Shown here piece after piece: positions 22,301 through 49,034 of a stretch of DNA of 64,000 nucleotides. This DNA comes from an uncultured Clostridia bacterium. Its GTDB lineage: Bacteria > Bacillota > Clostridia > Oscillospirales > Ruminococcaceae. Every line of letters starts with the position of its first letter. Within the stretch, counting starts at the first letter, position 1. A model generated the notes under the pieces. It was not told the origin of the DNA, did not search any database, and saw only the letters and a program-made list of their open reading frames with translations. Made by a program: the position numbers and the translations under genes. The stretch is taken from contig CALXBH010000004.1 in assembly GCA_944386475.1 (NCBI GenBank), forward strand, positions 1-64,000, given 5' to 3'.

Positions 22301-24042
22301 TCGTCGCCGTTGCTCACCACGCTGTACGGCTCATCAGGGTTGGAATCCTCATACCCCTGAAATTCCGGACGCTTGGCGATGTTGTACTGATAGTACTTGG
22401 TCATAATATCGGCAATGTCCGCCGCGGTGGCGTCGTCCACCAAAAAGTCCCGCTTGGCAATCTTCTCAACATAGGTGTGGATATTGGTGTCGTCGTACTG
22501 ATCGATATCCCACGCCATCTCCATCATAAACTCCAAGGATATCTCGGAGGGCTTGATATCGCCTACGTTGAGGATCCAGTATTCCTGCATGCCGGTGTCA
22601 TAAGCCTTGCGCAGCTCCTCATACATCTGCACCAAAGGCGTGGTGTTCAGCCACAGATAACTTGTATGATCCACGCCCCAGTAGGAGACATGGTAATAAA
22701 CGCCGGAGCCGCCGCTGCGCTCCCGTTCCGCATCGGTGGGAACCTGACGCAGGTAACCGTGGTTATCTTCCGCCCACATCAGGATGACGTCGTCCGGGAT
22801 CTGCACACCCGGTGTGTTTTCGTTGCCGTTATAAAATTCCGCCGCCTCTTTGTAGGGGATAAAGGCCTGGGGGATTTCCTCGGCGGGTTTACCCAGCACG
22901 TCGCTTAAAATCTCCCGCTGGACGTTGATGACTTCCTGCAAAACCGCGATCTTGTCCGCCAGGGTGGGATTGGTCAGCCCCCCGAACTCCATGCCCGAGT
23001 CGTGGATACCCCGCATACCGATGTTCCAGATCGCCTCAAAATCCTTGTTTTTCTCCACCCGCTCCCGCCAGTAGGCTTGCAGAGCCTCGGGGTTGATGGT
23101 GTAGTCATAAACGGGAACGCCGTTTGCATCGTACTGATCCCGATGGGCGTTGGCCCACCGGCTCCACTCCCCTTCATTGTTGCGTAAAAGCATCTCGCAG
23201 TGGGAAGCGCCCATGACGATGCCGTAGCTGTCGGCCAGCTTCGCGTTGATGGAGATCCCGTTTTCGTCCTCGTACAGGTTGAACGCGTCGCTGTAGTTGT
23301 GCATGGCGGGCCACAGGGTGTTGGCCTTTAAGCGCAGCAAAAGCTCAAACACCTTTTCATAGGCCCCTGCGTTGGGAGAGCCGGGGGTCTGTTCGTCCTT
23401 AAACTGCTCCGCCCAGGTGGTGAAGTTGCGTTCGTCGTTGATAAAGATGCCACGGTATTTTACCGAAGGCTCCCCTTCCACTTTCAGGGGGTCAGACAGT
23501 AAAATCTCATCCTGCACCTTTGGGGTCACGTCCGCCCACCAGTAATAGGGGGATACGCCGATCTGCTCGGAGACGTCATAGATCCCGTAGATGGTCCCCC
23601 GCTTGTCGCTGCCCGCGATGACCAGCGCCTCCGCCACACCGTCCACCGGGTTTTCTACCCGCTTGATGACGTAGGACTCCCACTTGCCGGTGATGTCCTT
23701 AGCCTCATCCAGCTTTCCGTCTTCCATCAGCTGTTTAATCACCGGACTCTGTTCGATCGAGCCCACAATGACGGCGTATTCGCTTAAATCCTCCGTGGAG
23801 TTTTCCACAGAAGGAGTCGTTTCGGTCACCCGGTTGACGTCCTCCTGCAAGTCTCCCGCCGCCCGGATGATCTGAGGATAATCCTCGTCCGAAACAAAGA
23901 TGTCCGCCGCCGTTCCCTCATAAAACAGCGGAAAACCCTCTTCGCTGGCGGAAGCGGTGGACAAAGCGCCTAACGGCACCGTCGTGGCGATCATCGCCGT
24001 AGCTAAAATCGCCGATACCAGCCTTCGCATGTTTGCACCCAT
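19339..24042 (-). CDS. Giant (1567 aa) secreted glycoside hydrolase, GH115-like (putative xylan alpha-1,2-glucuronidase), with C-terminal tandem Ig-like (Big_2) domains, a Gly/Pro/Thr-rich linker and a sortase-type sorting signal (NPTTG + TM + RRKK)
   Basis: Signal peptide MGANMRRLVSAILATAMIATTVPLGALSTASA. The block SDKRGTIYGIYDVSEQIGVSPYYWWADV matches the recalled GH115 N-terminal signature. C-terminal Big_2-like repeats (VVTVDENGTVAIVGAGEAVITAS; AVAAVDQNGVVTLVGAGEATITVT). Linker PGGNETPGGNETPGDNETPGG. Ends ENPTTGELPWATMLTVAILAAGGGAVLLFRRKKA. Confidence 0.75.
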   Translation of the reverse strand: MGANMRRLVSAILATAMIATTVPLGALSTASASEEGFPLFYEGTAADIFVSDEDYPQIIRAAGDLQEDVNRVTETTPSVENSTEDLSEYAVIVGSIEQSPVIKQLMEDGKLDEAKDITGKWESYVIKRVENPVDGVAEALVIAGSDKRGTIYGIYDVSEQIGVSPYYWWADVTPKVQDEILLSDPLKVEGEPSVKYRGIFINDERNFTTWAEQFKDEQTPGSPNAGAYEKVFELLLRLKANTLWPAMHNYSDAFNLYEDENGISINAKLADSYGIVMGASHCEMLLRNNEGEWSRWANAHRDQYDANGVPVYDYTINPEALQAYWRERVEKNKDFEAIWNIGMRGIHDSGMEFGGLTNPTLADKIAVLQEVINVQREILSDVLGKPAEEIPQAFIPYKEAAEFYNGNENTPGVQIPDDVILMWAEDNHGYLRQVPTDAERERSGGSGVYYHVSYWGVDHTSYLWLNTTPLVQMYEELRKAYDTGMQEYWILNVGDIKPSEISLEFMMEMAWDIDQYDDTNIHTYVEKIAKRDFLVDDATAADIADIMTKYYQYNIAKRPEFQGYEDSNPDEPYSVVSNGDEGQIRVDQLNALVERAEAIYNNLDADRKDAFYQMVYYPIRGSAFNLAMNIYWQKNQLYAEQGRYASVEKYEDLSTQAYNNMVNDRIYYNKVMQDGKWDGIINPYVKNIPTMVGLRTFATVDESDQVAGIGAVCEGQSLPTDNITLEFSSLQDSRRFIDIYSREAAANNWTIEVSDDFIVPSKTSGTVEVEDRIWIGIDWDKAADGENTGTITVKDDKGFSKTFQLTAFKSTAQLGERTYAEANGYVAIEAEHYTESVAKNGSEWKVIENWGRSGDSVKVYPDISPRIDSNFAENSAQLKYDIYFESTGTFTGTFYRIPTLNEGNTDEGVRKTCRTAIGLEGEEPTLLRGISTAVNVEEPWIRGTLENIEKLTFNITIDEPGVHTLVVYQSDAGMAFDRIVINTGGERTSYLGPPESYNTISYEAPLESSLPQLAEQAEPETITVYQGEEETEVTDYVMIAPDQELPLSADRAVSWSIASDDEAISLQVNADGTASVTGTAEGKGVLEIVSEENPLLVRYVMVMVSEDTSQRPAEFLEQNGEVIIDIASAMEQSEYANFEDCSTHYWRMNDGGNAMTVQPDMGTQWLAGTTSATAAHNSEKLSEYAPQLNFKINFQTAGTYYIHTLSSHPIDDSDSYHVGLDGEWQCHTNYATHEGNMRWEKSESRWTITVDEPGVHTLNIWAREDGIVSHRIYLTTQSGKSYFTGWGPEESERRMVENGEQADLTINGGDRTVTFGDEGFTLTVSDAQGTVNWESSDTHVVTVDENGTVAIVGAGEAVITASDGVASDSVTVTVEKAAQQAIAIEQEDMTCQLSDGTVTLTATGGSGSGAATWESSDTAVAAVDQNGVVTLVGAGEATITVTKAADNNYLAPVSDSITITVKDDSTSSDDNPGGDDQPGDTDSEPSGGDNTPGGNETPGGNETPGDNETPGGDDTQTPGGQDDTQTPGGSGGTENPTTGELPWATMLTVAILAAGGGAVLLFRRKKA

Positions 24043-24262: not shown

Positions 24263-25156
24263 ATGTCTATCATCTATCGTTACTCCGAGCGGACTTTTTA
24301 CTCTCATCACATACGGGACAACAATCCTGACAGCGACCGGTTCCCCCTGCACGTTCATGATGTTCATGAGTTTTGCTATTTCATTGCCGGAGGCGGCCGC
24401 TTTTTTATCGAGTCCAGCGCTTACGATCTTTATCCCGGCTGCATCCTTCTGATGCGGGCAGGGGAAGCCCACCGCCTTCAGGTGAATACCTCCATGCCCT
24501 ACGAACGGATCACCGTGGAGTTTTCCCCCTCCCTGTTCAGTGATTTTGATCTGCAAAGCCAGCTGACCGAAGCGTTTGTTAAACGCCCTGCCGGGCAGTT
24601 TAACCTGTACACCCCCGAGATGCTGGACAGGGAGCTTACCCACGCCTGCATGCGACTTTTATCCGCCCAGTTCCAGGTGATTCCCGATCAGCAAAAGCGC
24701 ATGACGATGATTGCCTGTTTATCCCCTGTCCTATTGGAGATAAACAGGGCGTTTCTGACCCGCATCAGCGCCCAGCCCTTTCAGGACGAACGGACGGTCA
24801 CCGCCGTCAGCCAGTTAATCGAATACATCAACGCCCACCTGTGTGAAAAGCTGGATTTAAACCTTTTGGCTCAGCGCTTTTTTATAAGCAAAACCCACCT
24901 GAACAATCAGTTTAAACAGGTGACCGGCTGCACCATCTGGGAATACATTATTATCAAGCGCCTGGTGCTGGCGCGAAAGTATATCCGGGACGGCATGTCC
25001 GCTGGGGAAGCCGCCCTTTCCAGCGGATGGAGCGATTATTCCTCCTTTTACCGCAGCTATAAAGCCCGGTTTGGCGTCTCTCCTTTGTCCGACAAGCAAA
25101 GCAATCTGGCAAAGCTCCGGCCGGAGTATGACATCCGCAGGGAGCTTCCGGAATAA
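24263..25156 (+). CDS. AraC family transcriptional regulator (cupin + HTH), divergent from the GH115-like gene
   Basis: N-terminal cupin (FPLHVHDVHEFCYFIAGGG) and C-terminal AraC HTH (SSGWSDYSSFYRSYKARFGVSP). Confidence 0.85.
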   Translation: MSIIYRYSERTFYSHHIRDNNPDSDRFPLHVHDVHEFCYFIAGGGRFFIESSAYDLYPGCILLMRAGEAHRLQVNTSMPYERITVEFSPSLFSDFDLQSQLTEAFVKRPAGQFNLYTPEMLDRELTHACMRLLSAQFQVIPDQQKRMTMIACLSPVLLEINRAFLTRISAQPFQDERTVTAVSQLIEYINAHLCEKLDLNLLAQRFFISKTHLNNQFKQVTGCTIWEYIIIKRLVLARKYIRDGMSAGEAALSSGWSDYSSFYRSYKARFGVSPLSDKQSNLAKLRPEYDIRRELPE

Positions 25157-28439: not shown

Positions 28440-28751
28440 GCCCCATTACCCCCATTTCAAAAGCCCGCCCGGCTTGTACCCTCCCGCCGAATAAGAATGT
28501 TAAAAACAGGCGGAGAAAATCCGGGCATAAGGGCAAGAAACAAGCAGACGGAAATTTTCCGTCTGCTTGTTTCCTTGTATAACGAAAACCACGCGATAGC
28601 CGCGTGGTTGAAAAAGCGTAAGCGATGGGGGAGAATAATAAATACCAAAACAAAGTAACGTCATAAATAGCTTGGTGCATACAAAGTTAAATGGCAAAGC
28701 CCTGTACCAATCATAAAGGGAGAGATGGTTTTGGCATCTCTCCCTTTTGGC

Positions 28752-30125
28752 TTACGATTCAATTTTCCAGGCATTGCGGTCCACGTCGCCGCTGATTCCA
28801 TCAACTTTTCCGTCGGAGCAGCTTTGCCACACCTGGAAGGGCTGGGACCAGCTGATGGTGGTGGCCCAGCGGGCGACCCATTTGCCATAGGAGGTCAGCC
28901 GGCTTAAATCCAGCTGGTTTTCAAACCAGGACTGGCTGGCATAGATCATCGATTTCTTCCCGGCCTGTTCCACGGTTTTGCAGAAGGCCTCCATAGCGTC
29001 GGTGCGGTCTTTGCGGGAGATGTTGTCCGCCCGGCCAACATCCCCGTTGGAGGTGGCTTTCTCGGTGTCAATGGCAAGGTAAGTGACGTTCGGGTATTCC
29101 TCCGCTGCGCTTAAACACCACTGGGCCTCAGCTTGTCCCTCGGCGGCGTTGATGGCCTGGGAGAAGAAGTAGATCCCCACTTCCAGGCCGGCTGCGGTGG
29201 CGCCTTCGATATTTTCCACGAAATTCCGGTCCATGACGATGGCGCCGGTGCCGTAGCCCCGGTAGCCTGCCCGGATGAAAACAAAATCAATGCCGTCGGC
29301 TTTTACCTTCTGCCAATCGATATCGCCGTTCCACTGGGAAACGTCGATGCCGCATTTGGAAGAAAGGGCGCCTTCACTGTCAAAATAGTATCCCACGTTG
29401 TTGATATTCTGCCAACCGATAAGCTTTTTTCCGTTCAAATAACAGTAGCGCTTTCCGGCGGTATCCCACCAGCCGGAATAATTAGGATCGGTGGGCCAGG
29501 TGGGAGCGGGCGCCTGGGAGGATGTTTCAGCGGAAGAACTGCCGGAGCTGCTTCCTCCTTCCGAGCCGGAAGAACTGCCGCTCGAGGAATCGCTGTCAGA
29601 AGAACTACTGCTGGAAGAGCTGCTGCCGGCCGAGCTGGAGGAGCTACCCGGTTCAGAGGAACTGGATGGGGTGTTGCTGGACACCGAAGAGGTGGTTGTG
29701 CTGGAGCTTCCGGAAGAGCTTCCTCCCGTCGAGGGGGTTTCCGGGATGGTGATGGTGCCGCCTGATCCCATTTCTTCTTCTCTCCCTGCGGAGGAATCCC
29801 CTTTCTGGGGGTCTTCCTGTATGGTTTCTTCCGTTTGCTGGAAGATAGGATCCTTGGTGACGTTTTGGGTGATCGGCTGCTCTGGCGCCGGTGCGGGAGG
29901 CGGGGCCACAGAGGAAACGCCTTCGGAGGATGTGGAATCAGAAGATACAAGACTGCTTTCTGTCAGGAAATCCGATGATGTCAGGGACGATAGAACCCCG
30001 CCGCTGGAGATGGGAAACTGGGTTAAGGCGGCAGTGGTATCTTTTTCGATTCTGTTGCATCCGGACAGCGTGGCGAGGACATAAGCGGATGCCAGCAGAA
30101 CGGCGCTTTTTCGATAGAAAGACAT
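28752..30125 (-). CDS. Secreted lipoprotein with Ser-rich low-complexity linker and C-terminal GH25 muramidase (lysozyme) domain
   Basis: Lipobox LATLSGC. A long poly-Ser/Gly region. C-terminal CGIDVSQWNGDIDWQKVKADGIDFVFIRAGYRGYG...AIDTE...GISGDVDRN is typical of GH25 (Cpl-1/Lyc-type). One choline-binding-like cell-wall-binding repeat (WQNINNVGYYFDSEG). Confidence 0.85.
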   Translation of the reverse strand: MSFYRKSAVLLASAYVLATLSGCNRIEKDTTAALTQFPISSGGVLSSLTSSDFLTESSLVSSDSTSSEGVSSVAPPPAPAPEQPITQNVTKDPIFQQTEETIQEDPQKGDSSAGREEEMGSGGTITIPETPSTGGSSSGSSSTTTSSVSSNTPSSSSEPGSSSSSAGSSSSSSSSSDSDSSSGSSSGSEGGSSSGSSSAETSSQAPAPTWPTDPNYSGWWDTAGKRYCYLNGKKLIGWQNINNVGYYFDSEGALSSKCGIDVSQWNGDIDWQKVKADGIDFVFIRAGYRGYGTGAIVMDRNFVENIEGATAAGLEVGIYFFSQAINAAEGQAEAQWCLSAAEEYPNVTYLAIDTEKATSNGDVGRADNISRKDRTDAMEAFCKTVEQAGKKSMIYASQSWFENQLDLSRLTSYGKWVARWATTISWSQPFQVWQSCSDGKVDGISGDVDRNAWKIES

Positions 30126-30262
30126 GGGTTACCTCCGAATGTTAAGCCGATGATACATCTATAAAAATAAGTGTATCACAATACCCGGTGGATTTCAACA
30201 AAATCCACCGGGAAACGGCAAAACTCCGGCTGGTAATATGCGCCAGAAAACCTTGGCTGTAT

Positions 30263-30850
30263 TTAAGAGGGATCAGGAGGACTTAGCAGATCGGATTCCG
30301 TGAAAACTGACCCGTACGTCATAATCAGGCGGTTCCAGGTGGCCTTGTCGGTGTCGCCGGTGGAAGGAAGATCGGTCATGATTTGAAATCGGGCGATGGC
30401 CTCCTGGGTTTTCTGATTGTAGATTCCGGTGATTTCCATACTGGGAATGTTATTAAAGTGCCGGGAGAGGGTTCTTAACATAAGCTGGATAAAATAAACG
30501 GCGTCTCCCCGGTCATCTAATGTGACCGACCGGCCGTTTTGCGGGAACATGGGGCCGTTTAAGGGAAGCAGTTGTTCTTTAATAACCGTCACATAATCGG
30601 CGGTCAGGATGGTCCAGGTGCGGTAGTCCACCACGCCGGTGGGAGGTAATCCTTTTAACAGCTGGAACTGGATAACCGCGCCGGTGGTCTGGGGGCCGAA
30701 GATGCCGTCAGGGATAATGTGGGGAATGGCAGCGTTTACAAAGGAAAGCTCCCGCAAAAACAGTTGTATTTGGTAAACAGCCCGCTGGTTTTCGGAAAAG
30801 TTTGAGGGGATTTCAGAGACCCTGGGGTCGATCATATACAAAAGGTTCAT
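30263..30850 (-). CDS. Peptidoglycan-binding domain protein (2x PG_binding_1)
   Basis: Two repeats of the GxFGPxTxxAVxxFQ pattern (GIFGPQTTGAVIQFQLLKGLPPTGVVD; GIYNQKTQEAIARFQIMTDLPSTGDTD). Confidence 0.7.
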   Translation of the reverse strand: MNLLYMIDPRVSEIPSNFSENQRAVYQIQLFLRELSFVNAAIPHIIPDGIFGPQTTGAVIQFQLLKGLPPTGVVDYRTWTILTADYVTVIKEQLLPLNGPMFPQNGRSVTLDDRGDAVYFIQLMLRTLSRHFNNIPSMEITGIYNQKTQEAIARFQIMTDLPSTGDTDKATWNRLIMTYGSVFTESDLLSPPDPS

Positions 30851-30901: not shown

Positions 30902-32308
30902 TCAGTCTTGCTCCTCCTGGAGGGTATAGCCGGGATATTGGCCGGCTTGGGGGGACTGGGCGCTCATCAGGTCGGAGTATAGGCTGGCGATCCGGTTCCA
31001 GGTATTGGGCCCCACATAACCGGTGGGGGTAAGCCCAAACTCCTCCTGGAAAGCGGTGACGGCGGCTACGGTCTGGCTGCCGAAATAGCCGGTGACGGGC
31101 ACGGAGGGAATAGGATAAAACTGGGAGATATAGCTTAAATACTGCTGTAAATATTCCACATATGGGCCTCGGGAGCCCTGAGTTAAGGTAGTGCCGGGGA
31201 AGATATAAGGGGCGATCCGGGGATCCTCATTGGGAAGGGTCCGCACAAAGCCCAGATAGTCGTTGTACATTAAGTTCCAGGTGTTGCGCCCTACAATGCC
31301 GTCCTGAGTCAGGCCGTTTAAACGCTGGAAGGCGATAACGGCGTTTTTGGTGGAGGGGCCGAAAACCCCATCGATTTCTACCGGGGGGATCTCCGGGTTG
31401 GAGAGGTTTAAAACCGATAAATAGTATTGAAGCACCCGCACCGAATCACCGGTGTTCCCCTCCTGCAAGACGGTTTCAAACTGCTTGGAGATCTCCTGCA
31501 GAGAAATCCCCTCGCTTTCCAGTTCAGCCAGACGTTTGACGTTGACATAGAGAAACTGGATTTTATACCAGGTAGCCTTCCCCACAACGCCGTCCTGAGT
31601 CAGGTTAAAAATCTGCTGGAACTGCTTGACGGCGTTTTCGGTGTTCTCGTTAAACACCCCGTTTACCGGATTGATCTTGGGAATCAGCGGATAGTTTTGA
31701 GAAATCCGGTTTAAGCGGATCTGGATGGTCTGCACCTCGTTGCCCGCGCTTCCTAACCGGAGGGGAATCCCCGGATAGGATTCCTCAATGGACTGGACAG
31801 GGGCGTTGCGGACAATTTCAATGTCATCGCCGTAATAATAGGTCAAGATTTCGTAGGGGGTCATCCCCTGGCGGGCCAAATCCACGCTTCCCCATTGGGA
31901 AAGGCCTTCGCAGGTGACGGTGGTTCCGTTGCAGAACTGGGCGAAATATGGTTCCACCGACCCGTACCGCTTGATATAGTCGTTAAAGATTTCATCCACA
32001 ATTTGGCTGATGTTTTCAAAAATATCCCGGCCTGGGGTGAAGGATTGGTCGTACTGGGTGGAACTGGTGATGTCAAAGGGATAGCCGCGGCTGGGATACC
32101 ATTCGGTGTATACCCGGTTAAGGGCAAAGGAGATTTGGGCGTAGATATTCGCCCGCAGGGCGCTGTCCGGCCAGGTGGGGTAAATTTCGCTGGACGCCAC
32201 GTTTTTAATATAATCGGGGAACGAAACGGTGATGTTGCTTACATTTTCATCCGGCCGTCCTAAATGGACGGTGATCGACTGGGGGATAAAGGGCAGAGAA
32301 GATGGCAT
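30902..32308 (-). CDS. sleC: SleC-like spore cortex-lytic enzyme, catalytic (mature-enzyme) region plus three C-terminal PG_binding_1 domains. Encoded separately from its pro-domain.
   Basis: EIYPTWPDSALRANIYAQISFALNRVYTEWYPSRGYPFDITSSTQYDQSF and FAQFCNGTTVTCEGLSQWGSVDLARQGMTPYEILTYYYGDDIEI align with the recalled Clostridioides/Clostridium SleC catalytic core (EIYSTWPEQTIYANVIAIISFTLNRVFTEWYRNKGYNFTITSTTAYDHKF...YCDGQ...QWGSKDLGDQGYDYESILRYFYGDEI). Its own RBS AGGAGG lies upstream of the ATG. Confidence 0.75.
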   Translation of the reverse strand: MPSSLPFIPQSITVHLGRPDENVSNITVSFPDYIKNVASSEIYPTWPDSALRANIYAQISFALNRVYTEWYPSRGYPFDITSSTQYDQSFTPGRDIFENISQIVDEIFNDYIKRYGSVEPYFAQFCNGTTVTCEGLSQWGSVDLARQGMTPYEILTYYYGDDIEIVRNAPVQSIEESYPGIPLRLGSAGNEVQTIQIRLNRISQNYPLIPKINPVNGVFNENTENAVKQFQQIFNLTQDGVVGKATWYKIQFLYVNVKRLAELESEGISLQEISKQFETVLQEGNTGDSVRVLQYYLSVLNLSNPEIPPVEIDGVFGPSTKNAVIAFQRLNGLTQDGIVGRNTWNLMYNDYLGFVRTLPNEDPRIAPYIFPGTTLTQGSRGPYVEYLQQYLSYISQFYPIPSVPVTGYFGSQTVAAVTAFQEEFGLTPTGYVGPNTWNRIASLYSDLMSAQSPQAGQYPGYTLQEEQD

Positions 32309-32343
32309 AGGATGTGTCGCCTCCTGTTTATTGGTGTTCGCCT

Positions 32344-33387
32344 TTACTCCTGAGAAGAGGAAGCGGGCTGCTCTTTGCTTACATCGCTTACCTGATCCGG
32401 GTTTTTATTGGGCAGGGGGATCAGCTGCACCGGCAGAATAGAGATCTGCCCGGCAAACATCTGCACGTTCATCAGCCGCTCGCTTTGAAAATTAGGGGCG
32501 GAAACAGTGACCTGATAAACTGCATAAGGATTTTGTGCGGTGGGGGTTTCAGACAACCTGCGGTCAGGTGCGGGAAGGGTGATGGTAGGGGTTTTCCCGT
32601 CCGCGTCGGTTTGCAAAACCTGATGGAAAACCTGTTCTTCGTTATCCGCACGGGAAACGGTGACAGTAGCCAGTGGAATAGGTACTGCCCGGCCTCCGGC
32701 TGAAACCTGCACCTTTAAATAAGCGCTGTCGGTATAGGGGGCCTCAGAGCCGTCGTCGCCCAGATTACCGGTGTTTTGGTTGGCAGGGGGATTCGTTTTG
32801 GAGTCAAGGTTTTCCTCTCCTACCGGCGGGCCTTCTGCTACAGGAGCATCTTCGCTGTACTCAGTTTGTTCCTCTGGCAGAAGATCTTCCATTGTGCCCG
32901 GGAAAACAGAGGCTTGAGCAGGGGTAAGCAGCTCATCTGTCTGGTCGTTGGCGCTTTGCCGGGGAGAAAGCAGGGGGATATCAGTGGGGTTTTGCTGCCC
33001 GGAGTCCGGCTGGGGCGTGGCTTGATGGTTGTGGGTGTGCTGGCCGCCGTCTGCCAGCGTATGGGAACCGGCGGTGGCATCCGCGCCTTCCAGCTTTTCC
33101 CAGGACGGGGCCATTTCCTCCAGCGCCGCCCGGAAATATTCTTCGTTGGAGAGACACGGCCCGCCAGGCTGTGCTTCCGGCGGGGCTGGCATAGGCATAT
33201 CAGAAGCAGGTGGAGCGGGAGGCATCGGAGGTTCAGGCGGCTCCGGCGGTGGTGGGGGAGGTGCCGGCGGAGCTGTCGGCTTGGGAACAGATGAATTCCC
33301 TTTCCGGCTCAGCCGCATCAGCTCTTCCGCATATTTTTTTACGTTTTCCTCCAGATTGGAGTGTAGAAAGCGGTTTTGTTCGGACAT
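32344..33387 (-). CDS. SleC N-terminal pro-domain homolog as a separate ORF, with a long Pro-rich insertion
   Basis: The C-terminal ~110 aa (AYLKVQVSAGGRAVPIPLATVTVS...LPAPDRRLSETPTAQNPYAVYQVTVSAPNFQSERLMNVQMFAGQISILPVQLIP) resemble the SleC pre-pro region (FLTVSIID...LPAPDVDYSLQPSDVRPYSQYIVEAIADGYETVVIEGTQLLATIEARQNV). Stop TAA at 32344. The next ORF is in a different frame with its own SD. ATG at 33387 has an upstream GAAAGGAAGGAAG. Confidence 0.6.
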   Translation of the reverse strand: MSEQNRFLHSNLEENVKKYAEELMRLSRKGNSSVPKPTAPPAPPPPPPEPPEPPMPPAPPASDMPMPAPPEAQPGGPCLSNEEYFRAALEEMAPSWEKLEGADATAGSHTLADGGQHTHNHQATPQPDSGQQNPTDIPLLSPRQSANDQTDELLTPAQASVFPGTMEDLLPEEQTEYSEDAPVAEGPPVGEENLDSKTNPPANQNTGNLGDDGSEAPYTDSAYLKVQVSAGGRAVPIPLATVTVSRADNEEQVFHQVLQTDADGKTPTITLPAPDRRLSETPTAQNPYAVYQVTVSAPNFQSERLMNVQMFAGQISILPVQLIPLPNKNPDQVSDVSKEQPASSSQE

Positions 33388-33612
33388 GGCGTGCTTCCTT
33401 CCTTTCAAAGATCGGATAAAAACAGGGAATCGCTATAATCTATGAACAAAACCGCCAAAAAAGTATAACAAAAGCTGTTTCAACAAGTTGTTAAATGAAG
33501 AATTGTGAATATTATTAATATAATTTATATAAAAAGTTGATTACTTTTATTGATATCTTCTAAAATTAATGTACAATATAGTTGTCAAATTTACTAATTA
33601 GGAGGGTGTGCT

Positions 33613-36600
33613 ATGCGAAAAAGAGTGTCATCAATGCTGCTTGCGATTATTGTTGCATTGATGCCGGCAACCGTTGGAATAGGTTCGTCAATGCAACTGG
33701 AAAATACGGCAAGACCTATTATTACGGTAGATGCATTTTCAGAAAGAGGGGAAATCAGTCCATATACCTTGGGGTCTAACCATAGGCATGCCTACGGCGG
33801 ATTTGGCATGTATGACGAGGAAAATGACGAGGTATATCCTGACTTTCTTGAAAAGACAAAAGAAGCAAATCTTGGAGTGGTCAGATATCCTGGAGGAACT
33901 ATCGCTAACCTTTTTACCTGGAAGGATACCATAGGCCCCAAGGATCAGCGCAACAATGTAGTGCTGGGAAGCAACTATGCGTCGGTTTTCCCCTATTACG
34001 GCTTAGATGAGCATATGCAATATACCGAGGACATAGGGGCAGAAGTTATCTATATGGTGGCGGAACCCGCAGAAACTCCACAGGGCGCAGCGGACTTGGT
34101 AGAATATCTTAACGGAATCCCTGGCGAAAACAACGATGGCGGAACTGACTGGGCCCAGATACGTGCGGATAATGGACACCCCGAGCCGTATAATGTCAAG
34201 TATTTTGAGATTGGAAACGAGATGTCTATCAGCAATCAGCAGTATTGGCTAAATCTTCCGTCCGTGTATGGGGAAACTGACCGGGCAAAACGGTATGTGC
34301 TGGGAGATACCGTACAGGCGACCAAGGCACCCGCCCGGATAAAGGGAACTTGGCAGGACAATAAGTCACGCGGCACAGCTAATCAAAACTTCTATACGCA
34401 GTATAGCCCTGTTGTTGAGGGAACGGATGCGGTTTATGTTAATGGAGTCAAGTGGAATAGAGTAGAACAACTCGATGGGGCTGGATCGGAAAATGTTTAT
34501 ACATTTGACCCGGCAGAAGGAAAAATCAGTTTTGGCGATGGGAAAAACGGCAACATACCGCCTAAGGATGCGACGATAACAATTGATTATCAACATAGAC
34601 ATGCTGGATTTATGGAATACTATGATGCCATGAAGGCGGTTGATCCCAGTATAAAAATTTTTGCCAACCTTCCCTATACCTATAATTTTATTACAGACGG
34701 GAAGTGCGATGGTATTGTATACCATAATTACATTGATTTTCCAAGCGACCTGAAAACAAAAGAGGAGGTACATGATACCTATATTGACATTTCTGACCGG
34801 CTTGTCAAGATGATCGACAGCAATGTGTCTGAATTAAGAGAACGCTCCGTCAGCCAGGACACAATCGCCGCAGTAACGGAATTTGGGTCGATCAACATTC
34901 CAGCTGCCTATTCGGAGGATACCTCTGCAGAGGGGCGGGACGAAGCGCGCTCCTTAAGCCGCGCATTATCCTTTGCAACAACCTATATTGGATCGGCCAA
35001 AGCGGAATCGCTAATCCATATTCACCAAGCGTTTACAGCTTACAGCTTTGGGGGAGGGCCTGGAATTACCAATGCGGATCAGGTTTATAACAGTTTGTAT
35101 GCCCCTTATGCGGATGATCCCACAACATTTATCGAAAGCGGAACAGCGCTGGCCTATAAACTGATAGGAAACAACACAGGAAGTACGGTCAGAAATTCTT
35201 ATATTCAGAATAATCCGGTTGTTACACGGCATAAAGAGTATGAGGCATTAAATGTTTTGGCAACCCAAGAGGATGAAAACGGGGATCTTTATCTAATGGT
35301 AGTCAATCGGGACTCTGAAAATGACATAGCTGCCTCTCTTAATTTAAAGGGATATGCAATATCAGGAAAAGCCAGGATCCAGACATTAAACGCCGAGGAT
35401 GTTGCCTCCTGTAATACGCCGGAGCATCCCGAGGATATTAAAATTACTGAACAACAGGTGGTGTTTGGAGAGGGAGAAAGCAGTTTTTCCTATACCTTCC
35501 CGGCGCATTCTATCGTGGCGATAAAGTTAAGCGGAAAATCCACTGATTTTTATGAAGAAAACTTCCCGCTTCGTCATTTTAGCGCAGTAGAGGTAGGCAA
35601 GGTTCCTGAATATTTTGAACTGTCTAACGGTACGGCTTTTGCTCAAAATGATACTGCTGGGAATCGAGCGTTTGAAATTAAAAGGGCAGGGGCAGACACC
35701 AAGGTAAAGGGAACGCTTTCCGGACAGGCTGTCAACTCCACGGAAATAAAAACCTATGATGGGTTGATGAAAATTAAGTTTAAGCTAAAGGCTAAACAAA
35801 CAGGAGGAAGACTGGAGATATCCGTTTTATCAAACGGTAAAAAGGCACTTGAGTTTGCCTTGGAAAATGGCGCTGTAAAAAATGACGGCTCGGTTCGGGC
35901 TATTTATACAAACAATCAGTTCCACGACATCGAAATCGTCTTGGACCATAAAGCTGGCCAATACGTATTGTATTTTGATGGAAGCTATATTGGTTCCCCC
36001 GGAAAATATAATGCCGAAATTACTGACCCGCTGGACTATATTCAGTTTGAGGCAAAGAATCAGGACGCCTCCTATGTTATAGATGATTTTCTCATCGAGT
36101 CCGCGGACGATACCATGCTGCCAAAAATTACGCAGATTGATGCCGTAGAACGGACAACGGAAGTCGGAGAAGCTCCCAGCCTACCTGACAAGGTAACAGC
36201 CCGCTATAATACAGGAGAAGACGTAGAAATGGGCGTAACCTGGGATGATATTGATCCTAGCCAATACGCAGCGGAAGGAGTATATGAGGTAGCCGGAACT
36301 GTTTCGGAGTTAAACATTCCTGCGAGGGCGGTTATAACGGTAGTAAAACCAATCCATGCATTAACTCCAATAGAAATTCAGACGGTAGCGGGCACCAGTC
36401 CCCAACTTCCTGCGAGCATGGAAGTAGAATATATAAGCGGAGAAAAGGAGATAAAGTCCATTATATGGGATGAAATTGATCCTGTACAATATCAATCAGC
36501 TGGAGAATTTATTGTAGAGGGCACTATTGATGGCGTAGCAAAACGGCCCCAGGCAAAGATAACGGTCATTGCCAAAGCAGATGTACCGATTATTACAGTA

Positions 36601-38259
36601 GAAGCTTTTACAAAACGAGCCGATCAGGTTTCGCCGCTCAAGGGAAATCGTGTGGATTCCTTTGTGGAAAATAATGCCGCACTGGCAGGGAGTGCGCAGG
36701 GCGCATTGCAGTCCATTGTGACGAAGGAAAACAATACACTGTACCTGACAGTAATTAACCATAATAAAAAGGAGGATATTGGGGCAGCCTTTAATTTGAA
36801 AGGATATGTCATAAAGAGCGAGGCGGCGGTGCGGACGGCGGATTATGTAGATGAAAGCAGTCTGGGACTTTGGGAAAACGAAAGCTGTGAAGAGATCAGT
36901 GCTTCCTTAGGAATAGGGGAAAGTTCCTTCTCCTATGTTATCCCTGCAGGAGCGGTCGTATCAATAAAAGTGTCGGGAACTAGTTCGGCTGATCCATGGA
37001 CGGAAAATTTTCAGCTAAGACATTTTAGTGCGGTCGCAACGGGGCAAATGCCTACTTACTTTTCTAAGGTAAGCGGTGCGGCATCCTCTCAGCAGGAACC
37101 CGGCAACGCTCAACAGCAGGTATTTATGCTGAAAAGAGATAATACGGACACCCTTGTAAAAGCCACTTTGTCTGGAAAAGATTTTCCTGTAAGCGAAGAG
37201 GTCACTTATGACGGGCTTTTACAAATAAAACTAAGTGTCAAGCCGTCGCAGCAAGAAGGGCGCTTCAGCATACAGCTGCTATCGCAGGAAGATGTTGCAT
37301 TAGAAATTGAATTTAACAATGGAAAGATTATCAGTGACGGAAAGGAAGTAGGCAGTTATCAGGCAAACCAGTGGTACAAACTTGAAGTAGTGCTGGATCA
37401 TCAGGCAAAAGAATATTCCGTATATAATAATGGAAACTGTCTTGCGTATAATCAAGGCTACTCCGGCACGGCAGTAGATGCTTTAGATTATGCAGCTTTC
37501 TGTGTAACGGATACAAACAGCACATTCTATATAGATGATTTCTATATAAGATCTATGGATGTGAAAATGGAATCTAAAATTACACAAATAGATTCTGTTT
37601 TTGTGACAACGAAAGCGGGAAACAAACCCGTGCTTCCGTCACAGGTAACTGTTCGTTATAATACGGGAGAAAGTGATGAGAGAGAAGTAATCTGGCAGGA
37701 GATAGAGCCCTCATTGTATGAACAGCCTGGAAGATTTACGGTAATAGGTGCAGTTGACGGAACAGTTTTAGAAGCGGCTGCACAGATAACCGTTGAAGAA
37801 AATGACAGTACCTCCAGCGATATCAGTGGCAGTGATTCTTCAAGCGATGTTTCCGGGGATAATTCCTCTGATGATTCCTCAAGCGATGCTGCTGATGAGG
37901 TTTCCTCCGGCGACTCTCATAGCGATGTTTCCGGGGATAATTCTTCTGATGATTCCTCAAGTGATACTGCCGGCGAGGTTTCCTCCAATGACCCGCATGG
38001 CAATGCTTCCGAGGATAGCTCTTCCGACAACCACTCGAACGATGCTGCAGATGGAGGCTCTTCGGATGAATTTTTGAGCAATACCGTTGGAGGTAGTATA
38101 ACTGAGGATTTAGATCATACGGGTAAAAACGAAAACGAACCACCGGCGACATCCGATCAGAATACCCATTTATTATTAGTAGCGATTTCTGTTGCGGTTT
38201 TGTTGGCGGCAGGAAGCATCTGCCTGATAAAGAATGAGACGGATAAGAAATCGTCCTAG
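33613..38259 (+). CDS. Giant (1548 aa) secreted GH51 alpha-L-arabinofuranosidase with internally duplicated beta-sandwich/laminin-G-like/Big_4 modules, Ser/Asp-rich repeats and a C-terminal TM anchor
   Basis: Signal peptide MRKRVSSMLLAIIVALMPATVG. VVRYPGGTIANLFTWKDTIGPKDQR and GHPEPYNVKYFEIGNEM closely match the recalled GH51 AbfA motifs (RWPGGNFVS..W.DGIGPKDQR; GHPEPYNVKYWGIGNEM). Big_4-like repeats (VTARYNTGEDVEMGVTWDDIDPSQY). Duplicated ~280-aa module. C-terminus is THLLLVAISVAVLLAAGSICLIKNETDKKSS. Confidence 0.8.
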   Translation: MRKRVSSMLLAIIVALMPATVGIGSSMQLENTARPIITVDAFSERGEISPYTLGSNHRHAYGGFGMYDEENDEVYPDFLEKTKEANLGVVRYPGGTIANLFTWKDTIGPKDQRNNVVLGSNYASVFPYYGLDEHMQYTEDIGAEVIYMVAEPAETPQGAADLVEYLNGIPGENNDGGTDWAQIRADNGHPEPYNVKYFEIGNEMSISNQQYWLNLPSVYGETDRAKRYVLGDTVQATKAPARIKGTWQDNKSRGTANQNFYTQYSPVVEGTDAVYVNGVKWNRVEQLDGAGSENVYTFDPAEGKISFGDGKNGNIPPKDATITIDYQHRHAGFMEYYDAMKAVDPSIKIFANLPYTYNFITDGKCDGIVYHNYIDFPSDLKTKEEVHDTYIDISDRLVKMIDSNVSELRERSVSQDTIAAVTEFGSINIPAAYSEDTSAEGRDEARSLSRALSFATTYIGSAKAESLIHIHQAFTAYSFGGGPGITNADQVYNSLYAPYADDPTTFIESGTALAYKLIGNNTGSTVRNSYIQNNPVVTRHKEYEALNVLATQEDENGDLYLMVVNRDSENDIAASLNLKGYAISGKARIQTLNAEDVASCNTPEHPEDIKITEQQVVFGEGESSFSYTFPAHSIVAIKLSGKSTDFYEENFPLRHFSAVEVGKVPEYFELSNGTAFAQNDTAGNRAFEIKRAGADTKVKGTLSGQAVNSTEIKTYDGLMKIKFKLKAKQTGGRLEISVLSNGKKALEFALENGAVKNDGSVRAIYTNNQFHDIEIVLDHKAGQYVLYFDGSYIGSPGKYNAEITDPLDYIQFEAKNQDASYVIDDFLIESADDTMLPKITQIDAVERTTEVGEAPSLPDKVTARYNTGEDVEMGVTWDDIDPSQYAAEGVYEVAGTVSELNIPARAVITVVKPIHALTPIEIQTVAGTSPQLPASMEVEYISGEKEIKSIIWDEIDPVQYQSAGEFIVEGTIDGVAKRPQAKITVIAKADVPIITVEAFTKRADQVSPLKGNRVDSFVENNAALAGSAQGALQSIVTKENNTLYLTVINHNKKEDIGAAFNLKGYVIKSEAAVRTADYVDESSLGLWENESCEEISASLGIGESSFSYVIPAGAVVSIKVSGTSSADPWTENFQLRHFSAVATGQMPTYFSKVSGAASSQQEPGNAQQQVFMLKRDNTDTLVKATLSGKDFPVSEEVTYDGLLQIKLSVKPSQQEGRFSIQLLSQEDVALEIEFNNGKIISDGKEVGSYQANQWYKLEVVLDHQAKEYSVYNNGNCLAYNQGYSGTAVDALDYAAFCVTDTNSTFYIDDFYIRSMDVKMESKITQIDSVFVTTKAGNKPVLPSQVTVRYNTGESDEREVIWQEIEPSLYEQPGRFTVIGAVDGTVLEAAAQITVEENDSTSSDISGSDSSSDVSGDNSSDDSSSDAADEVSSGDSHSDVSGDNSSDDSSSDTAGEVSSNDPHGNASEDSSSDNHSNDAADGGSSDEFLSNTVGGSITEDLDHTGKNENEPPATSDQNTHLLLVAISVAVLLAAGSICLIKNETDKKSS

Positions 38260-38339: not shown

Positions 38340-39329
38340 CTACCGGTAGTAAACGTATTTATAAAACACCGGATACTCGTTAAACAAATGCTGTAAGGTC
38401 GTGCGGTACTGAGAACCGGGGTCGTTGACGGTAAACTTAGAGGCTGTCAGGGTATCCCCGCCGGTGTAACCGGTGACGACCACCCAGTGCTGTTTCCCTG
38501 CGCTGGTCTTAGCGCCTACCAGCACCGGCTTGCCCTGTTTTAAAAGGTTATAAACAGCGTTTAAATAGCCGGAGCTGTTTGTCACGTTCACATAATCGCC
38601 GGGCCAGTATAAGTCGCCGGAGGAGGAGTAGCTGAGCTTTTTGGACATGGCGTCGGGATAGATGGTGACGCCGTTGCGGTAGGACTCCATCATGGCGATG
38701 GCCGTGGTGGTGCAGCCGATGCGGGCAATGGTCTTGCCGGAATTGCCGATGATAACATTTGCCCAACGGCTGTCGGTCTGCTTAAAGTCCGGCAGGGGCA
38801 GGGAGACAGCGGCATAGGTCTGGGAGGATTTTAAGTAACTGCTGCTGACATAGCCTGTCTTTACGCCGTCATACAGCACCCTGCTGAATCCTGAGGACTC
38901 CGAAAGGACCAAAACCGTTTTCCCCTTGGCTAACGAACCGATGATCCCATAGCCGGTGCCCGGGCCGCTGCGGACGTTGAGGTTTGTGGAGCTTGTGTTG
39001 ACGGCAGCGATCTTGCTGGAAACCGTCTGGATATAATCCTTGTGGCAGTAACCGTATTTGCCGTCAGCGTATTCCACCTTCCACCAGCTGCCGGACAGGG
39101 AGAGAAGCGTCACATAACTGCCCTTATTTAACGAAGCGACCACCGCCGCGGAGGTGGAAGCGCTGGCCCGGACGTTAAGCCGGCCTGAGGAGGTGGCGAC
39201 CACGCCCGCCTGACTGCTGGCGGATGCCGCCGAAGCGCTTATACCAGCGGCAGAGAGAAAGCAGACGCTTATTACCACCGCGGTAAACAGAGAGAGCAAT
39301 CGTTTCATCAGAAGTTTTTTGTTGTTCAT
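38340..39329 (-). CDS. Secreted SH3b-domain protein with C-terminal C39-like (Peptidase_C39_2) cysteine peptidase domain; putative cell-wall hydrolase
   Basis: Signal peptide. Two SH3b-like repeats (SGRLNVRASASTSAAVVASLNKGSYV; STNLNVRSGPGTGYGIIGSLAKGKTV). C-terminal DFKQTDSRWANVIIGNSGKTIARIGCTTTAIAMM, with a later conserved HWVVVTGY His, is the C39_2-like papain-fold pattern. Confidence 0.7.
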   Translation of the reverse strand: MNNKKLLMKRLLSLFTAVVISVCFLSAAGISASAASASSQAGVVATSSGRLNVRASASTSAAVVASLNKGSYVTLLSLSGSWWKVEYADGKYGYCHKDYIQTVSSKIAAVNTSSTNLNVRSGPGTGYGIIGSLAKGKTVLVLSESSGFSRVLYDGVKTGYVSSSYLKSSQTYAAVSLPLPDFKQTDSRWANVIIGNSGKTIARIGCTTTAIAMMESYRNGVTIYPDAMSKKLSYSSSGDLYWPGDYVNVTNSSGYLNAVYNLLKQGKPVLVGAKTSAGKQHWVVVTGYTGGDTLTASKFTVNDPGSQYRTTLQHLFNEYPVFYKYVYYR

Positions 39330-39483
39330 AAAACCCACCTTTATACAAAATTTGTTTTTACATTTGGCTTTCGCCTACGCAAATCATATCATTTAAGTAG
39401 GTTTTTGACAATACTGAAAATACCGGAAACAAAGGCAAAAAAAGGACGTGCTGCAATATGCAGCACGTCCTTTTGGAAGCTTA

Positions 39484-41256
39484 TTATAAATCCTGTAGCT
39501 GTGCGGTGTACAGCTTGTAGTAGTCGCCTTTTTTAGCCATCAGTTCCTCGTGGGAGCCGCACTCGGTGATGCCTTTGTTGGAGACATACATGATCTTGTC
39601 GCAGTTTTTGATGGTAGAAAGCCGGTGGGCGATGATAAAGGAGGTTCTGCCCTTGAGCAGCTCGTTTAAGCCCTTTTGCAGCTGCCGCTCGGTCTTGGCA
39701 TCGATGGAGGAAGTGGCCTCGTCCAAAATAAGGATTCTGGGGTCGGCGAGCAGCGTGCGGGCAAAAGCCACCAGCTGTTTTTGCCCTTGGGACAAACGGC
39801 TGCCCCGCTCGTTGACCTCGGTGTAATAGCCAAGTTCCATCTGTTCGATAAACTCGTTGGCACAGACGGTCTCGCAGGCCTTTTTCACCTCGGCGTCGGT
39901 GGCGTCCAACCGGCCGTATTTAATGTTGTCCATAATCGTGCCGGAGAAGATAAAGCTGTCTTGCAGCATGATGCCCATCTGGGAGCGCAGGGAGTGAAGG
40001 GTCACCTGGGAGATATCGTGACCGTCCATCAAAATCCTTCCCCCATTGAGGTTATAAAACCGGGAGATCAAGTTGACGACGGTGGTTTTTCCGGCGCCGG
40101 TGGGGCCTACCAAAGCGATGCTCTCGCCCGGTTTTACCTGGAAAGACAGATTCTCCAGGATATTCCGCTCCCCGTCGTAGGAGAAGGTCACATGGTCAAA
40201 GGTTACCTCGCCGGTGATGGGAGGAAGCTCCTTGGCACCGGGAGCATCGCTGACGGTGACCGGCTCGTCCATGGTCTCAAAGATCCGCTCCAGATAAGCG
40301 ATGGCGTTGACAAAGTTGTTATAAAGGTTTGCGATATTTAAAATCGGCTGCCAGAACCGGGTAGCATAGGTGGTCATGGCAAAGATGATGCCGAAGGATA
40401 CCGAGGGCTGCAAAGCCAGCACTCCGATAAGATACAGCGCCGCCGTGACCCACACCGAGATGTTGTCCACCGACGTCCATACCAGGTTTCCGATATACTG
40501 GGCTTTCATCCAGGCATCCCGGTAATTTTTGTTAAGGCGGCCGAAGATGTTTTTGTTTTCCTCTTCCCGGGTGAACAGCTGGGTGATCTTAGCGCCGTCC
40601 AGACTTTCGTGGAGGTAGGCGTTCATGTTGGAGCTTTTGTTGGACACCTGCTGCCAGGAACGCCGCTGGGCCGGCTTGATGAGAAAGACAAGCAGCAAAA
40701 AGATGGGAATGCCTGCAAACACCAGCAGGGACAGCTTGGGGCTGGTGGCGATCATGAAGATCGAGATAAAGATCAGGTTAAAGACTTCCAGCACAAAGTT
40801 GATGATGCCGTTGGAAAGGGTGTCCGACACGTTGTTGACGTAGTGGACGATCCTGGTCAAAATCTTTCCGTGGGGCCGGTTGTCATAATACTCAAAGGAG
40901 AGCTCCTGCAAATGGTCAAACAGGTCTTTCCGGATGTCGTAGATAATCTCCTGCCCTACCCTAGTCATCATGCGGGAGCGGATGGTGGTAAACGCCACGC
41001 TGACAATAATGGTAATGAGCAAAACCACCGACAGCAAAATCAGCTGGGGGACGTCCTTTTGGGGGATAGTGTTGTCCAAAGCGTACTGGATGATTTTGGG
41101 ACCAAACAGGGTGGTGACCGCCGCCAATGCCGACAGGATCAGGGCCACCGTCATGGGACGTCCGTGGCGTTTAATGTATTTGCCGGCCCGTTTTAAATGG
41201 GTAAAGCTAAAAGGGGTTTCCAGGGTTTCGTCAACGTCGAATTTATTTCTGGCCAT
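39484..41256 (-). CDS. ABC transporter permease/ATP-binding protein (type I exporter half-transporter)
   Basis: Six-TM domain plus an NBD with Walker A GPTGAGKTT, signature LSQGQKQLVAFAR, Walker B ILILDEATS and H-loop. Confidence 0.9.
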   Translation of the reverse strand: MARNKFDVDETLETPFSFTHLKRAGKYIKRHGRPMTVALILSALAAVTTLFGPKIIQYALDNTIPQKDVPQLILLSVVLLITIIVSVAFTTIRSRMMTRVGQEIIYDIRKDLFDHLQELSFEYYDNRPHGKILTRIVHYVNNVSDTLSNGIINFVLEVFNLIFISIFMIATSPKLSLLVFAGIPIFLLLVFLIKPAQRRSWQQVSNKSSNMNAYLHESLDGAKITQLFTREEENKNIFGRLNKNYRDAWMKAQYIGNLVWTSVDNISVWVTAALYLIGVLALQPSVSFGIIFAMTTYATRFWQPILNIANLYNNFVNAIAYLERIFETMDEPVTVSDAPGAKELPPITGEVTFDHVTFSYDGERNILENLSFQVKPGESIALVGPTGAGKTTVVNLISRFYNLNGGRILMDGHDISQVTLHSLRSQMGIMLQDSFIFSGTIMDNIKYGRLDATDAEVKKACETVCANEFIEQMELGYYTEVNERGSRLSQGQKQLVAFARTLLADPRILILDEATSSIDAKTERQLQKGLNELLKGRTSFIIAHRLSTIKNCDKIMYVSNKGITECGSHEELMAKKGDYYKLYTAQLQDL

Positions 41257-41259
41257 TTG

Positions 41260-48989: not shown

Positions 48990-49034
48990 AAAAAACAGTT
49001 GCCGCCCATTTAATATGGGCGGCAACTGTTTTTT
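48990..49034. terminator. Bidirectional terminator (REP-like GC palindrome) between DUF1015 gene and anti-sigma gene
   Basis: AAAAAACAGTTGCCGCCCA-tttaatat-GGGCGGCAACTGTTTTTT. A related palindrome is reused at 54076-54122. Confidence 0.6.

Follow-up and report, generated by a model that had tools for sequence, protein, structure and literature searches.

SleC, an enzyme that lyses the cortex of spores, is treated in the literature as one multidomain prepro-protein, and its activation by Csp proteases, known from Clostridium perfringens and Clostridioides difficile, is the textbook model of clostridial germination. The prepeptide of C. perfringens SleC is removed during sporulation, and Csp takes the propeptide off SleC at germination. 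In C. difficile, the pre-sequence is removed by YabG, which cuts behind R119 within an exposed loop that immediately follows the N-terminal beta-sandwich, a prepeptide domain that has been called DUF3869-like. The families for which Csps are listed in reviews are Clostridiaceae, Lachnospiraceae, and Peptostreptococcaceae. Here we describe a 64,000-nucleotide (nt) stretch of DNA from an uncultured Clostridia bacterium of the Ruminococcaceae (assembly GCA_944386475.1, contig CALXBH010000004.1, positions 1 to 64,000; the window below), in which a SleC-type pre-domain and a SleC-type enzyme are encoded by two consecutive genes.

The Bacillus operon sleB-ypeB (and likewise cwlJ-gerQ) combines a lytic transglycosylase carrying PG_binding_1 with a co-expressed, noncatalytic partner and has no covalent zymogen. 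The partner protein is needed for stability and localization of the enzyme and is degraded at germination.

The searchable literature did not describe any split SleC, and it held nothing relevant on SleC from Oscillospiraceae or Ruminococcaceae, in keeping with the first-pass annotation of this DNA, in which the arrangement was not known to have been described before. Gene fission as such is ordinary, and the component parts are known.

Organization of the split sleC locus

The locus is a three-gene operon that occupies the minus strand from 33387 to 30263 in the order ORF2, ORF1, and ORF3 (ORF, open reading frame). ORF2 (32344..33387, including the TAA stop at 32344-32346) encodes a stand-alone SleC pre-domain protein of 347 amino acids (aa) from its ATG. 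This ATG form is the product given by gene callers in several assemblies; an alternative TTG start, read from the sequence in frame upstream, would extend the gene to 32344..33408. ORF1 (30902..32308) encodes a SleC-type catalytic protein of 468 aa that has neither a pre- nor a pro-region from its start, and ORF3 (30263..30850) encodes 195 aa with two PG_binding_1 domains, according to Pfam, and no catalytic domain. The 35-nt spacer between ORF2 and ORF1 (32309..32343) carries an AGGAGG Shine-Dalgarno sequence at 32320-32325 for the ORF1 ATG at 32308, and the two genes are in different frames (offset 1100 nt, remainder 2). The layout reported earlier, with two consecutive ORFs in different frames, a TAA between them, and a separate AGGAGG for the catalytic ORF, was therefore accurate. 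The single-polypeptide prepro layout of SleC is not present here: ORF2 ends at a stop codon, and the spacer with its Shine-Dalgarno sequence precedes ORF1.

The locus shares with SleC of C. perfringens and C. difficile the order of modules (beta-sandwich pre-domain, SpoIID-like catalytic domain, and PG_binding_1), and the fold of the pre-domain; a putative mother-cell promoter of the sigmaE/K type may be a further common trait. It differs in that two polypeptides replace the single chain, one for the pre-domain and one for the enzyme, and the disordered propeptide linker cut by Csp is absent. Moreover, ORF1 has three PG_binding_1 repeats as opposed to one in C. difficile SleC, ORF3 adds two, and a gene with two PG_binding_1 domains often follows the split pair; many pre-domain proteins are extended by an N-terminal helix motif and a long Pro/acidic linker, and there is no adjacent csp gene.

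The catalytic protein

Residues 6-263 of ORF1 aligned to residues 217-476 of PDB 9h68 with E=1.5e-72, a span that reaches from the catalytic domain through the first PG_binding_1 repeat. This entry is the pre-pro form of C. difficile SleC, and its numbering includes a tag of ~58 residues. The SpoIID-like lytic transglycosylase domain (ORF1 aa 1-180, 31769..32308), which is homologous to that of SleC and includes the SSEIY...TWP motif, is 49% identical to that of C. difficile SleC. An alignment of catalytic sequences from split loci, from fused proteins, which carry the pre-domain and the enzyme in one chain, and from C. difficile contained 52 invariant columns, SSEIY...TWP among them. ORF1 belongs to the catalytic fold family of SpoIID by weak matches, namely, a sub-threshold Pfam SpoIID match and a weak match to SpoIID_LytB (TIGR02669). 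SpoIID itself is anchored in the membrane, works in engulfment, and lacks both a pre-domain and PG_binding_1 repeats. TIGR02869 (SleB) matched ORF1 only within the PG_binding repeats (profile positions 4-68 of 201), far below the cutoff.

The three PG_binding_1 repeats noticed in ORF 30902-32308 at the outset were also found by Pfam (PF01471, E=1.6e-54) and in PDB alignments, at ORF1 aa ~183-252, 278-347, and 373-440 (30989..31762). ORF1-type proteins begin 4 to 8 residues ahead of the start of the catalytic domain, IPxxITVHLG, so that the catalytic ORF does begin approximately where mature SleC begins, as had been proposed. Enzymes of the ORF1 type are currently annotated as "peptidoglycan-binding protein."

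The pre-domain protein

Pfam produced a weak CarboxypepD_reg match for ORF2 and nothing else. ORF2 alone, at aa 198-312, matched residues 37-154 of 9h68 weakly (E=1.6e-3), and a six-sequence profile of the domain matched residues 58-187 with E=8.3e-14. In an AlphaFold2 (AF2) model of ORF2 aa 222-347, a seven-strand beta-sandwich had a predicted local distance difference test score (pLDDT) of 80-93, and the tail was disordered. The four chains of 9h68 were the best Foldseek matches of this model (E=2.6e-7 to 1.2e-6, TMq 0.74-0.75, root mean square deviation 1.6-2.0 Å), followed by transthyretin-like and carboxypeptidase-D regulatory domains. By these comparisons, the domain at ORF2 aa 222-325 (32413..32724) is a homologue of the SleC N-terminal prepeptide domain with a transthyretin-like/CarboxypepD_reg-like fold. 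The kinship of both ORFs with SleC, originally called from the letters and the translations, is thereby upheld, including the similarity of ORF 32344-33387 to the SleC pre-region on profile search.

The domain is preceded by two regions. Near the N terminus, a conserved motif at ORF2 aa 7-32, FLHSNLEENVKKYAEELMRLSRKGNS (…NLEENVKKYAEELMRL…; 33292..33369), looks helical and follows the family pattern xxxYKxELMxxY. A wider form, …[MI]xx[KR]Y[KR]xE[LM][LM]xx[YS]…, occurs in L003, L007, L013, L016, and ~40 other loci; the motif was detected in 37 of 81 ORF2-type proteins by regular expression and in ~43 by hidden Markov model (HMM). It had no match in other ORFs of the window or of the loci and is not covered by any Pfam family. 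A role as a module for spore targeting or for interaction is possible. The motif is followed by a Pro-rich, acidic linker of low-complexity composition (ORF2 aa 33-221, 32725..33291), the length of which varies among ORF2-type proteins from 0 to >500 aa. Several short islands of this presumably disordered linker (SNEEYFRAAxEEMAP, TLADxGQHTxNHQ, APVAEGPPVGE, and GDDGSxxPYxDxAYL) are kept in a relative with 86% identity (L089) and, judged by this conservation, may be short linear motifs.

The first-pass annotation had described an extra Pro-rich insertion in the pre-domain homologue. The tract itself, PPAPPPPPPEPPEPPMPPAPP, is present at approximately ORF2 aa 38-60. It sits ~160 residues upstream of the homologous domain, within the N-terminal extension, and therefore is not an insertion in that domain; we rejected this part of the description.

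ORF2-type genes are currently annotated as hypothetical. With the assignments above, both the upstream "hypothetical" gene and the enzyme could be named.

Two PHROG families of "unknown function" are also SleC-like: phrog_28785 comprises the pre-domain and the N terminus of the catalytic domain, and phrog_23452 comprises the C terminus of the catalytic domain and PG_binding. Either some regions annotated as prophage carry SleC-type genes, or these two families were built from misassigned host genes.

Position of the split relative to SleC processing

ORF2 had initially been taken for the pro-domain that Csp removes. By homology, its domain is instead the SleC prepeptide, because the YabG cut after R119 falls just after the beta-sandwich. 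After the sandwich, ORF2 keeps only about the first 10-20 residues as its tail, and from the propeptide region only the first ~10-12; the rest of the linker is in neither gene. In single-chain SleC, this linker is a disordered segment of 20-45 residues that joins the propeptide motif to the catalytic domain and holds the region cleaved at germination. Compared with fused forms, ~25-45 linker residues are missing from the split genes. In the profile phrog_28785 (315 positions), positions 29-135 matched ORF2 and 181-308 matched ORF1, in the same order, and ~45 positions (136-180) were matched by neither.

The C-terminal tail of ORF2 (aa 326-347, 32347..32412) occupies the place that the beginning of the propeptide has in SleC. 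Across an alignment of 83 loci, most ORF2-type tails extend 15-25 residues past the sandwich and end in a conserved ...[FY]xxxEPx[ND]L, immediately followed by the stop. The counterparts of this ending are DFI[FY]ETPxHSL in fused relatives and ELIFDIGEH in C. difficile. In an AF2 model of one such fused relative (P0115), DFIFETPAHSL was ordered (strand at 118-121; pLDDT 64 in block 111-120 and 87 in block 121-130), residues 131-150 were disordered (pLDDT ~50), and the catalytic domain began near residue 160. By the alignments and the model, it was precisely this disordered and presumably protease-accessible linker that the fission took out, and the start of the propeptide stayed with the pre-domain protein. 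ORF1 is made in the form that canonical SleC gains only after Csp cleavage.

Conservation and origin of the split

The junction in an independent metagenome assembly from the European Nucleotide Archive (L088) was identical to that in the window, and the exact ORF2 and ORF3 sequences recur in other assemblies. In the 86%-identity relative L089, the junction DNA is different, with indels and a 60-nt gap, and the two genes are still separate; the Shine-Dalgarno sequence and ATG-CCA-TCT-TCT at the catalytic start are conserved. Relative to L089, dN/dS (the ratio of nonsynonymous to synonymous substitution rates) was 0.08 for ORF1, 0.24 for ORF2, and 0.22 for ORF3, values that are rough because dS is saturated (>1). 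Purifying selection acts on all three genes.

When one genome was scanned for each species, 80 loci with 68-77% identity across the catalytic domain were identified. They were from Oscillospiraceae, Acutalibacteraceae, Ruminococcus spp., Clostridium methylpentosum DSM 5476 (L007), Zongyangia hominis NSJ-54 (L076), Congzhengia, Huintestinicola, and Avimonas. An HMM of the pre-domain found it in a separate ORF directly upstream in 78 of the 80 and fused to the enzyme in none; the remaining 2 loci had no upstream DNA. When 83 loci were compared, the relative frames of the two genes were 0, 1, and 2 in 31, 19, and 33 cases, respectively, the junction gaps were mostly between -11 and +38 nt, and a Shine-Dalgarno sequence stood ahead of the catalytic start. 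The split often passes through a simple in-frame stop.

The first-pass annotation had kept open a pseudogene produced by a frameshift, or an assembly error. On the local sequence alone, one sleC gene interrupted in this way, or by a sequencing error, is conceivable: the ORF1 frame is open for ~30 codons above the ATG (500 aa from stop to stop, with the catalytic domain from aa 37), and one indel near the end of ORF2 could join the frames of ORF2 and ORF1. However, the identical junction in L088, the split in all 78 informative relatives in all three frame relations, and dN/dS well below 1 for ORF1 and ORF2 exclude it, leaving in our judgment a vanishingly small chance that the split is an artifact. 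L089 is split through different junction DNA, and a Shine-Dalgarno sequence and start codon are kept before the catalytic gene. The loss of ~25-45 linker residues is also something that an indel cannot produce. Comparison of orthologous loci, the check suggested together with the original call, thus revealed the same split in 78 of 78 informative genomes, and neither these nor L089 contained an indel that restores a single ORF.

In a collection of 5.8 billion proteins, the closest relatives of ORF1 were almost all 460-470 aa long, with 98-100% coverage. The few long relatives had either a fused N-terminal sandwich (P0071, P0115, P0004, and P0119) or extra C-terminal PG_binding repeats (P0010, P0020, and P0066). 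Among the fused proteins, P0071 and P0115, both from Ruminococcaceae, are 54-55% identical to ORF1 over its full length, and the N-terminal ~105 residues of these two and of P0004 and P0119, from Clostridium spp., are 21-30% identical to the ORF2 domain. Fused SleC-like proteins have several PG_binding_1 repeats, as does ORF1; unlike the split pair, they are single polypeptides with a linker of 30-55 residues.

When 1.84 billion cluster representatives were searched exhaustively with an HMM of the pre-domain, 3539 proteins were found, 2611 of them at E<=1e-10. The best 150 of the 3539 comprised 70 stand-alone proteins, where the domain is C-terminal with no continuation, 70 proteins of the fused type, and 10 ambiguous cases. 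A word-indexed profile search for the pre-domain was insensitive and gave 23 matches, several of which were truncated fused proteins.

In a neighbor-joining tree of 155 catalytic domains, all 115 unfused sequences formed one pure clade, and Fitch parsimony on this tree required 1 change with a fused root. One ancient fission from a fused ancestor is the simplest reading of these sequences. The split arrangement extends well beyond this genome and is the rule across a large clade of Oscillospirales that includes Oscillospiraceae, Acutalibacteraceae, Ruminococcus-like bacteria, and related groups.

Csp proteases and the textbook model

No Peptidase_S8/csp gene was present among the window ORFs scanned (nearly all ORFs of ~200 aa or more), and no subtilase was found in the flanks of the 80 split loci. 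Since the enzyme has no propeptide to cut, the model in which Csp cuts proSleC cannot apply literally to this very large, mostly uncultured group of gut spore formers, and control of SleC at germination probably differs there from the textbook protease-activated scheme.

The fused P0115, by contrast with the split loci, does have an adjacent S8 gene. A Peptidase_S8 gene for 367 aa with a GGTSLAAP motif lies 70 nt upstream of it (L085, 8828-9931, and also L086). We did not call this gene a Csp: canonical Csps have ~550 aa, and S53-like motifs were seen by eye. It is possible that it encodes a dedicated activating protease unlike canonical Csps. Three small or low-complexity ORFs lie further upstream of the S8 gene in L085. 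The window contains a 154-aa ORF without a Pfam match (45271-45735, minus strand) whose homologue (E=3.5e-13), an ORF of 125 aa, lies upstream of the S8-SleC cluster of L085. A biotin-protein ligase gene is found near the small ORF both in the window (46678-47460, plus strand) and in L085, which suggests remnant synteny.

Third gene, putative promoter, and flanks of the cassette

A homologue of ORF3 (163-195 aa) was directly downstream of the catalytic gene in 38 of ~75 related loci, as well as in L001, from Intestinibacillus massiliensis, in L003, and in L089. In P0066, the ORF3 module (36% identity, E=1e-31) forms part of the catalytic protein itself, joined to its C terminus. A weak hairpin resembling a terminator, followed by a T-run, was predicted 3' of ORF3 (30204..30222, minus strand) and is the probable end of the operon.

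Upstream of the cassette, a -10 box of the sigmaE/sigmaK type, CATAGATTA (33436..33444, minus strand), is located 48 nt from the ORF2 ATG, with a possible -35 "AC" at 33463-33464 across an 18-nt spacer. The sigma factors sigmaE and sigmaK are the mother-cell sporulation sigma factors. The two share their -10 element, and C. difficile sleC is sigmaK-dependent. The pattern [GT]CATA[ATG]nnT was found ~38 nt before the start of ORF2-type genes in 35 of 78 loci, as opposed to 29 of 414 control upstream regions (Fisher p=3e-15), and A was enriched at -19 and -17. The strict sigmaK pattern AC-N16-18-CATAnnnTA was only weakly enriched (7 of 78 loci); the looser -10 carries the signal. No sigma70-like promoter was called upstream of ORF2 on the minus strand. 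CATAGATTA is, by its sequence, a putative sporulation promoter element of the sigmaE/K type for the cassette.

Beyond the core of two to three genes, the flanks were not conserved among the 80 loci. Variable flanks around a constant core point to a chromosomal housekeeping cassette and not to a mobile element. The window also encodes DpaA (dipicolinate synthase subunit A, DpaA_N; 51195-52103, plus strand), and the organism is therefore a spore former.

These observations bear on the proposal that the cassette does not act in germination and instead provides an autolysin, for vegetative cells or for lysis of the mother cell, or a prophage endolysin module. In its favor, the PG_binding_1 repeats have matches in many families of phage endolysins, a GH25 lysozyme gene follows immediately downstream, and a phage-type integrase is encoded at 1605-2858. 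We nevertheless consider a nongermination role improbable. The catalytic domain and the pre-domain match SleC specifically, PHROG matches other than those to phrog_28785 and phrog_23452 are confined to the PG-binding repeats, and the -10 element of the sigmaE/K type is enriched with no sigma70-like promoter called; the variable flanks and the dpaA gene of the organism speak against it as well. The prophage endolysin module in particular was rejected on the SleC-specific matches, the variable flanks, and the lack of holin, capsid, or tail genes nearby.

Possible roles of the pre-domain protein

The explanation that we favor, and regard as fairly probable, is that SleC has been split into a conserved cassette, fixed in a large clade of Oscillospirales, in which ORF2 is a noncovalent partner of ORF1. 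ORF2, ORF1, and ORF3 would be co-transcribed in the mother cell from the sigmaE/K-type promoter, and ORF2 would bind ORF1 noncovalently through the surface that the sandwich and tail provide in the single-chain zymogen. Bound ORF2 would help ORF1 to fold or to remain stable; it may also hold ORF1 latent and bring it to the spore periphery through the N-terminal module. Because ORF1 carries no covalent propeptide to remove, activation at germination would then need loss or degradation of ORF2, or changed access to the substrate, rather than a Csp cut of the enzyme. A Rosetta-stone argument suggests a functional linkage of the three genes: ORF2 and ORF1 are fused in canonical SleC, P0071, P0115, P0004, and P0119, and ORF1 and ORF3 are fused in P0066.

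The partner role has analogies elsewhere. The resemblance to Bacillus sleB-ypeB lies in the two-gene operon logic only. There is no sequence or fold kinship (SleB is a Hydrolase_2 protein, YpeB consists of PepSY domains, and ORF2 has no PepSY), and sleB-ypeB is expressed in the forespore (sigmaG), whereas the split cassette looks like a mother-cell type. An ancestrally covalent module provided as a separate polypeptide is likewise reminiscent of trans-acting pro-domains and foldases, such as the pro-regions of subtilisin and alpha-lytic protease in vitro and the lipase-specific foldase Lif; the folds, however, are unrelated, and a foldase or inhibitor role of ORF2 would be a concept borrowed by analogy.

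Several points weigh against ORF2 as a lasting partner or against the evidence for the cassette. The binding of ORF2 to ORF1 is something that we infer from sequence and consider plausible. The AF2 output for P0115 came without contacts, and the tail motif could pack on the sandwich and not on the catalytic domain; the window ORF2 itself has a degenerate tail (…NKNPDQVSDVSKEQPASSSQE) without the ...EPxNL motif. Work by Okamura and colleagues in 2000 is said to have assigned the C. perfringens prepeptide the role of an intramolecular chaperone. If a Csp exists elsewhere in genomes with split SleC, it could act on ORF2, and germination would stay protease-dependent. As to the promoter, the window -35 spacing (18 nt to AC) is off the family mode, and the -10 motif occurs in only ~45% of loci, with start codons chosen crudely. 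The catalytic-domain tree was a neighbor-joining tree without support values, drawn from a sample picked by similarity to ORF1, and the dN/dS values are rough owing to the saturated dS.

The main rival makes ORF2 transient or a scaffold and gives latency another basis. ORF2 would be only a localization or scaffold subunit, or a folding helper at the time of sporulation that is discarded before dormancy, and ORF1 would be mature in the dormant spore; its latency would come from the stress state of the substrate, ORF3, ions, or release of dipicolinic acid (DPA), as proposed for Bacillus SleB and CwlJ. The canonical pre-domain is removed in sporulation and is not a latency element, ORF1 is without any propeptide, and approximately half of the ORF2-type proteins have the N-terminal motif and a long disordered linker, features typical of assembly or targeting modules; the degenerate tail in the window fits as well. 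On the other hand, the propeptide-start motif is kept at the extreme C terminus of most ORF2-type proteins and is ordered in the fused model, which suggests a retained contact with the enzyme, and the junctions are translationally coupled, which suggests stoichiometric co-production. We rate this alternative as somewhat unlikely; a transient and a persistent complex fit the data alike.

A stronger version of the noncovalent partnership, which we advance tentatively as a possibility, is a multisubunit cortex-lytic "holoenzyme" in which mature SleC is held, folded, targeted, and silenced by the pre-domain subunit, itself equipped with an N-terminal targeting helix, so that removal or release of this subunit would trigger germination. 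ORF3 may also take part as a third, PG-binding subunit. If this holds true, a large share of gut Oscillospirales spore formers would control cortex hydrolysis without the Csp-to-proSleC cascade.

The split cassette offers a testable way into the germination of these gut commensals, with a bearing on culturing, spore-based live biotherapeutics, and microbiota transmission. It is also a natural experiment on the role of the SleC pre-domain: co-expression and binding assays are straightforward because evolution has already parted the pre-domain from the enzyme.

Other genes in the window

The product of the GH25 lysozyme gene directly downstream of the cassette (28752-30125, minus strand) bears a lipoprotein-like signal at its N terminus and also contains a long low-complexity region rich in Ser and Gly and a choline-binding-like repeat. 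Since the gene comes with sigma70-like promoter matches of its own (30150-30198) and with a strong terminator (28587-28609), it probably encodes a vegetative autolysin separate from the cassette. With two SH3_3 domains and a Peptidase_C39_2/papain-like domain, the protein encoded at 38340-39338 (minus strand) may be another cell wall-associated hydrolase; its gene adjoins an ABC exporter gene pair (39484-43194).

The phage-type integrase, a tyrosine recombinase on the plus strand, lies near the start of the window, and the scanned ORFs showed no further phage genes. Next to dpaA is a gene for a sigma factor of the extracytoplasmic function (ECF) type (50151-50798, minus strand), followed by a 373-aa ORF (49033-50154, minus strand) that has no Pfam match and is possibly the anti-sigma partner of the ECF-type factor.

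Three secreted glycoside hydrolase-like proteins of ~1550-1600 aa are encoded at 8725-13521 (plus strand), 19339-24042 (minus strand), and 33613-38259 (plus strand). They are, respectively, MGH1-like, GH115 with Big_2, and arabinofuranosidase-like with Big_4 and a carbohydrate-binding module (CBM). AraC-type regulators are encoded near these genes (7751-8590 and 24263-25156), and the set represents a fiber-degrading repertoire typical of gut Oscillospirales.

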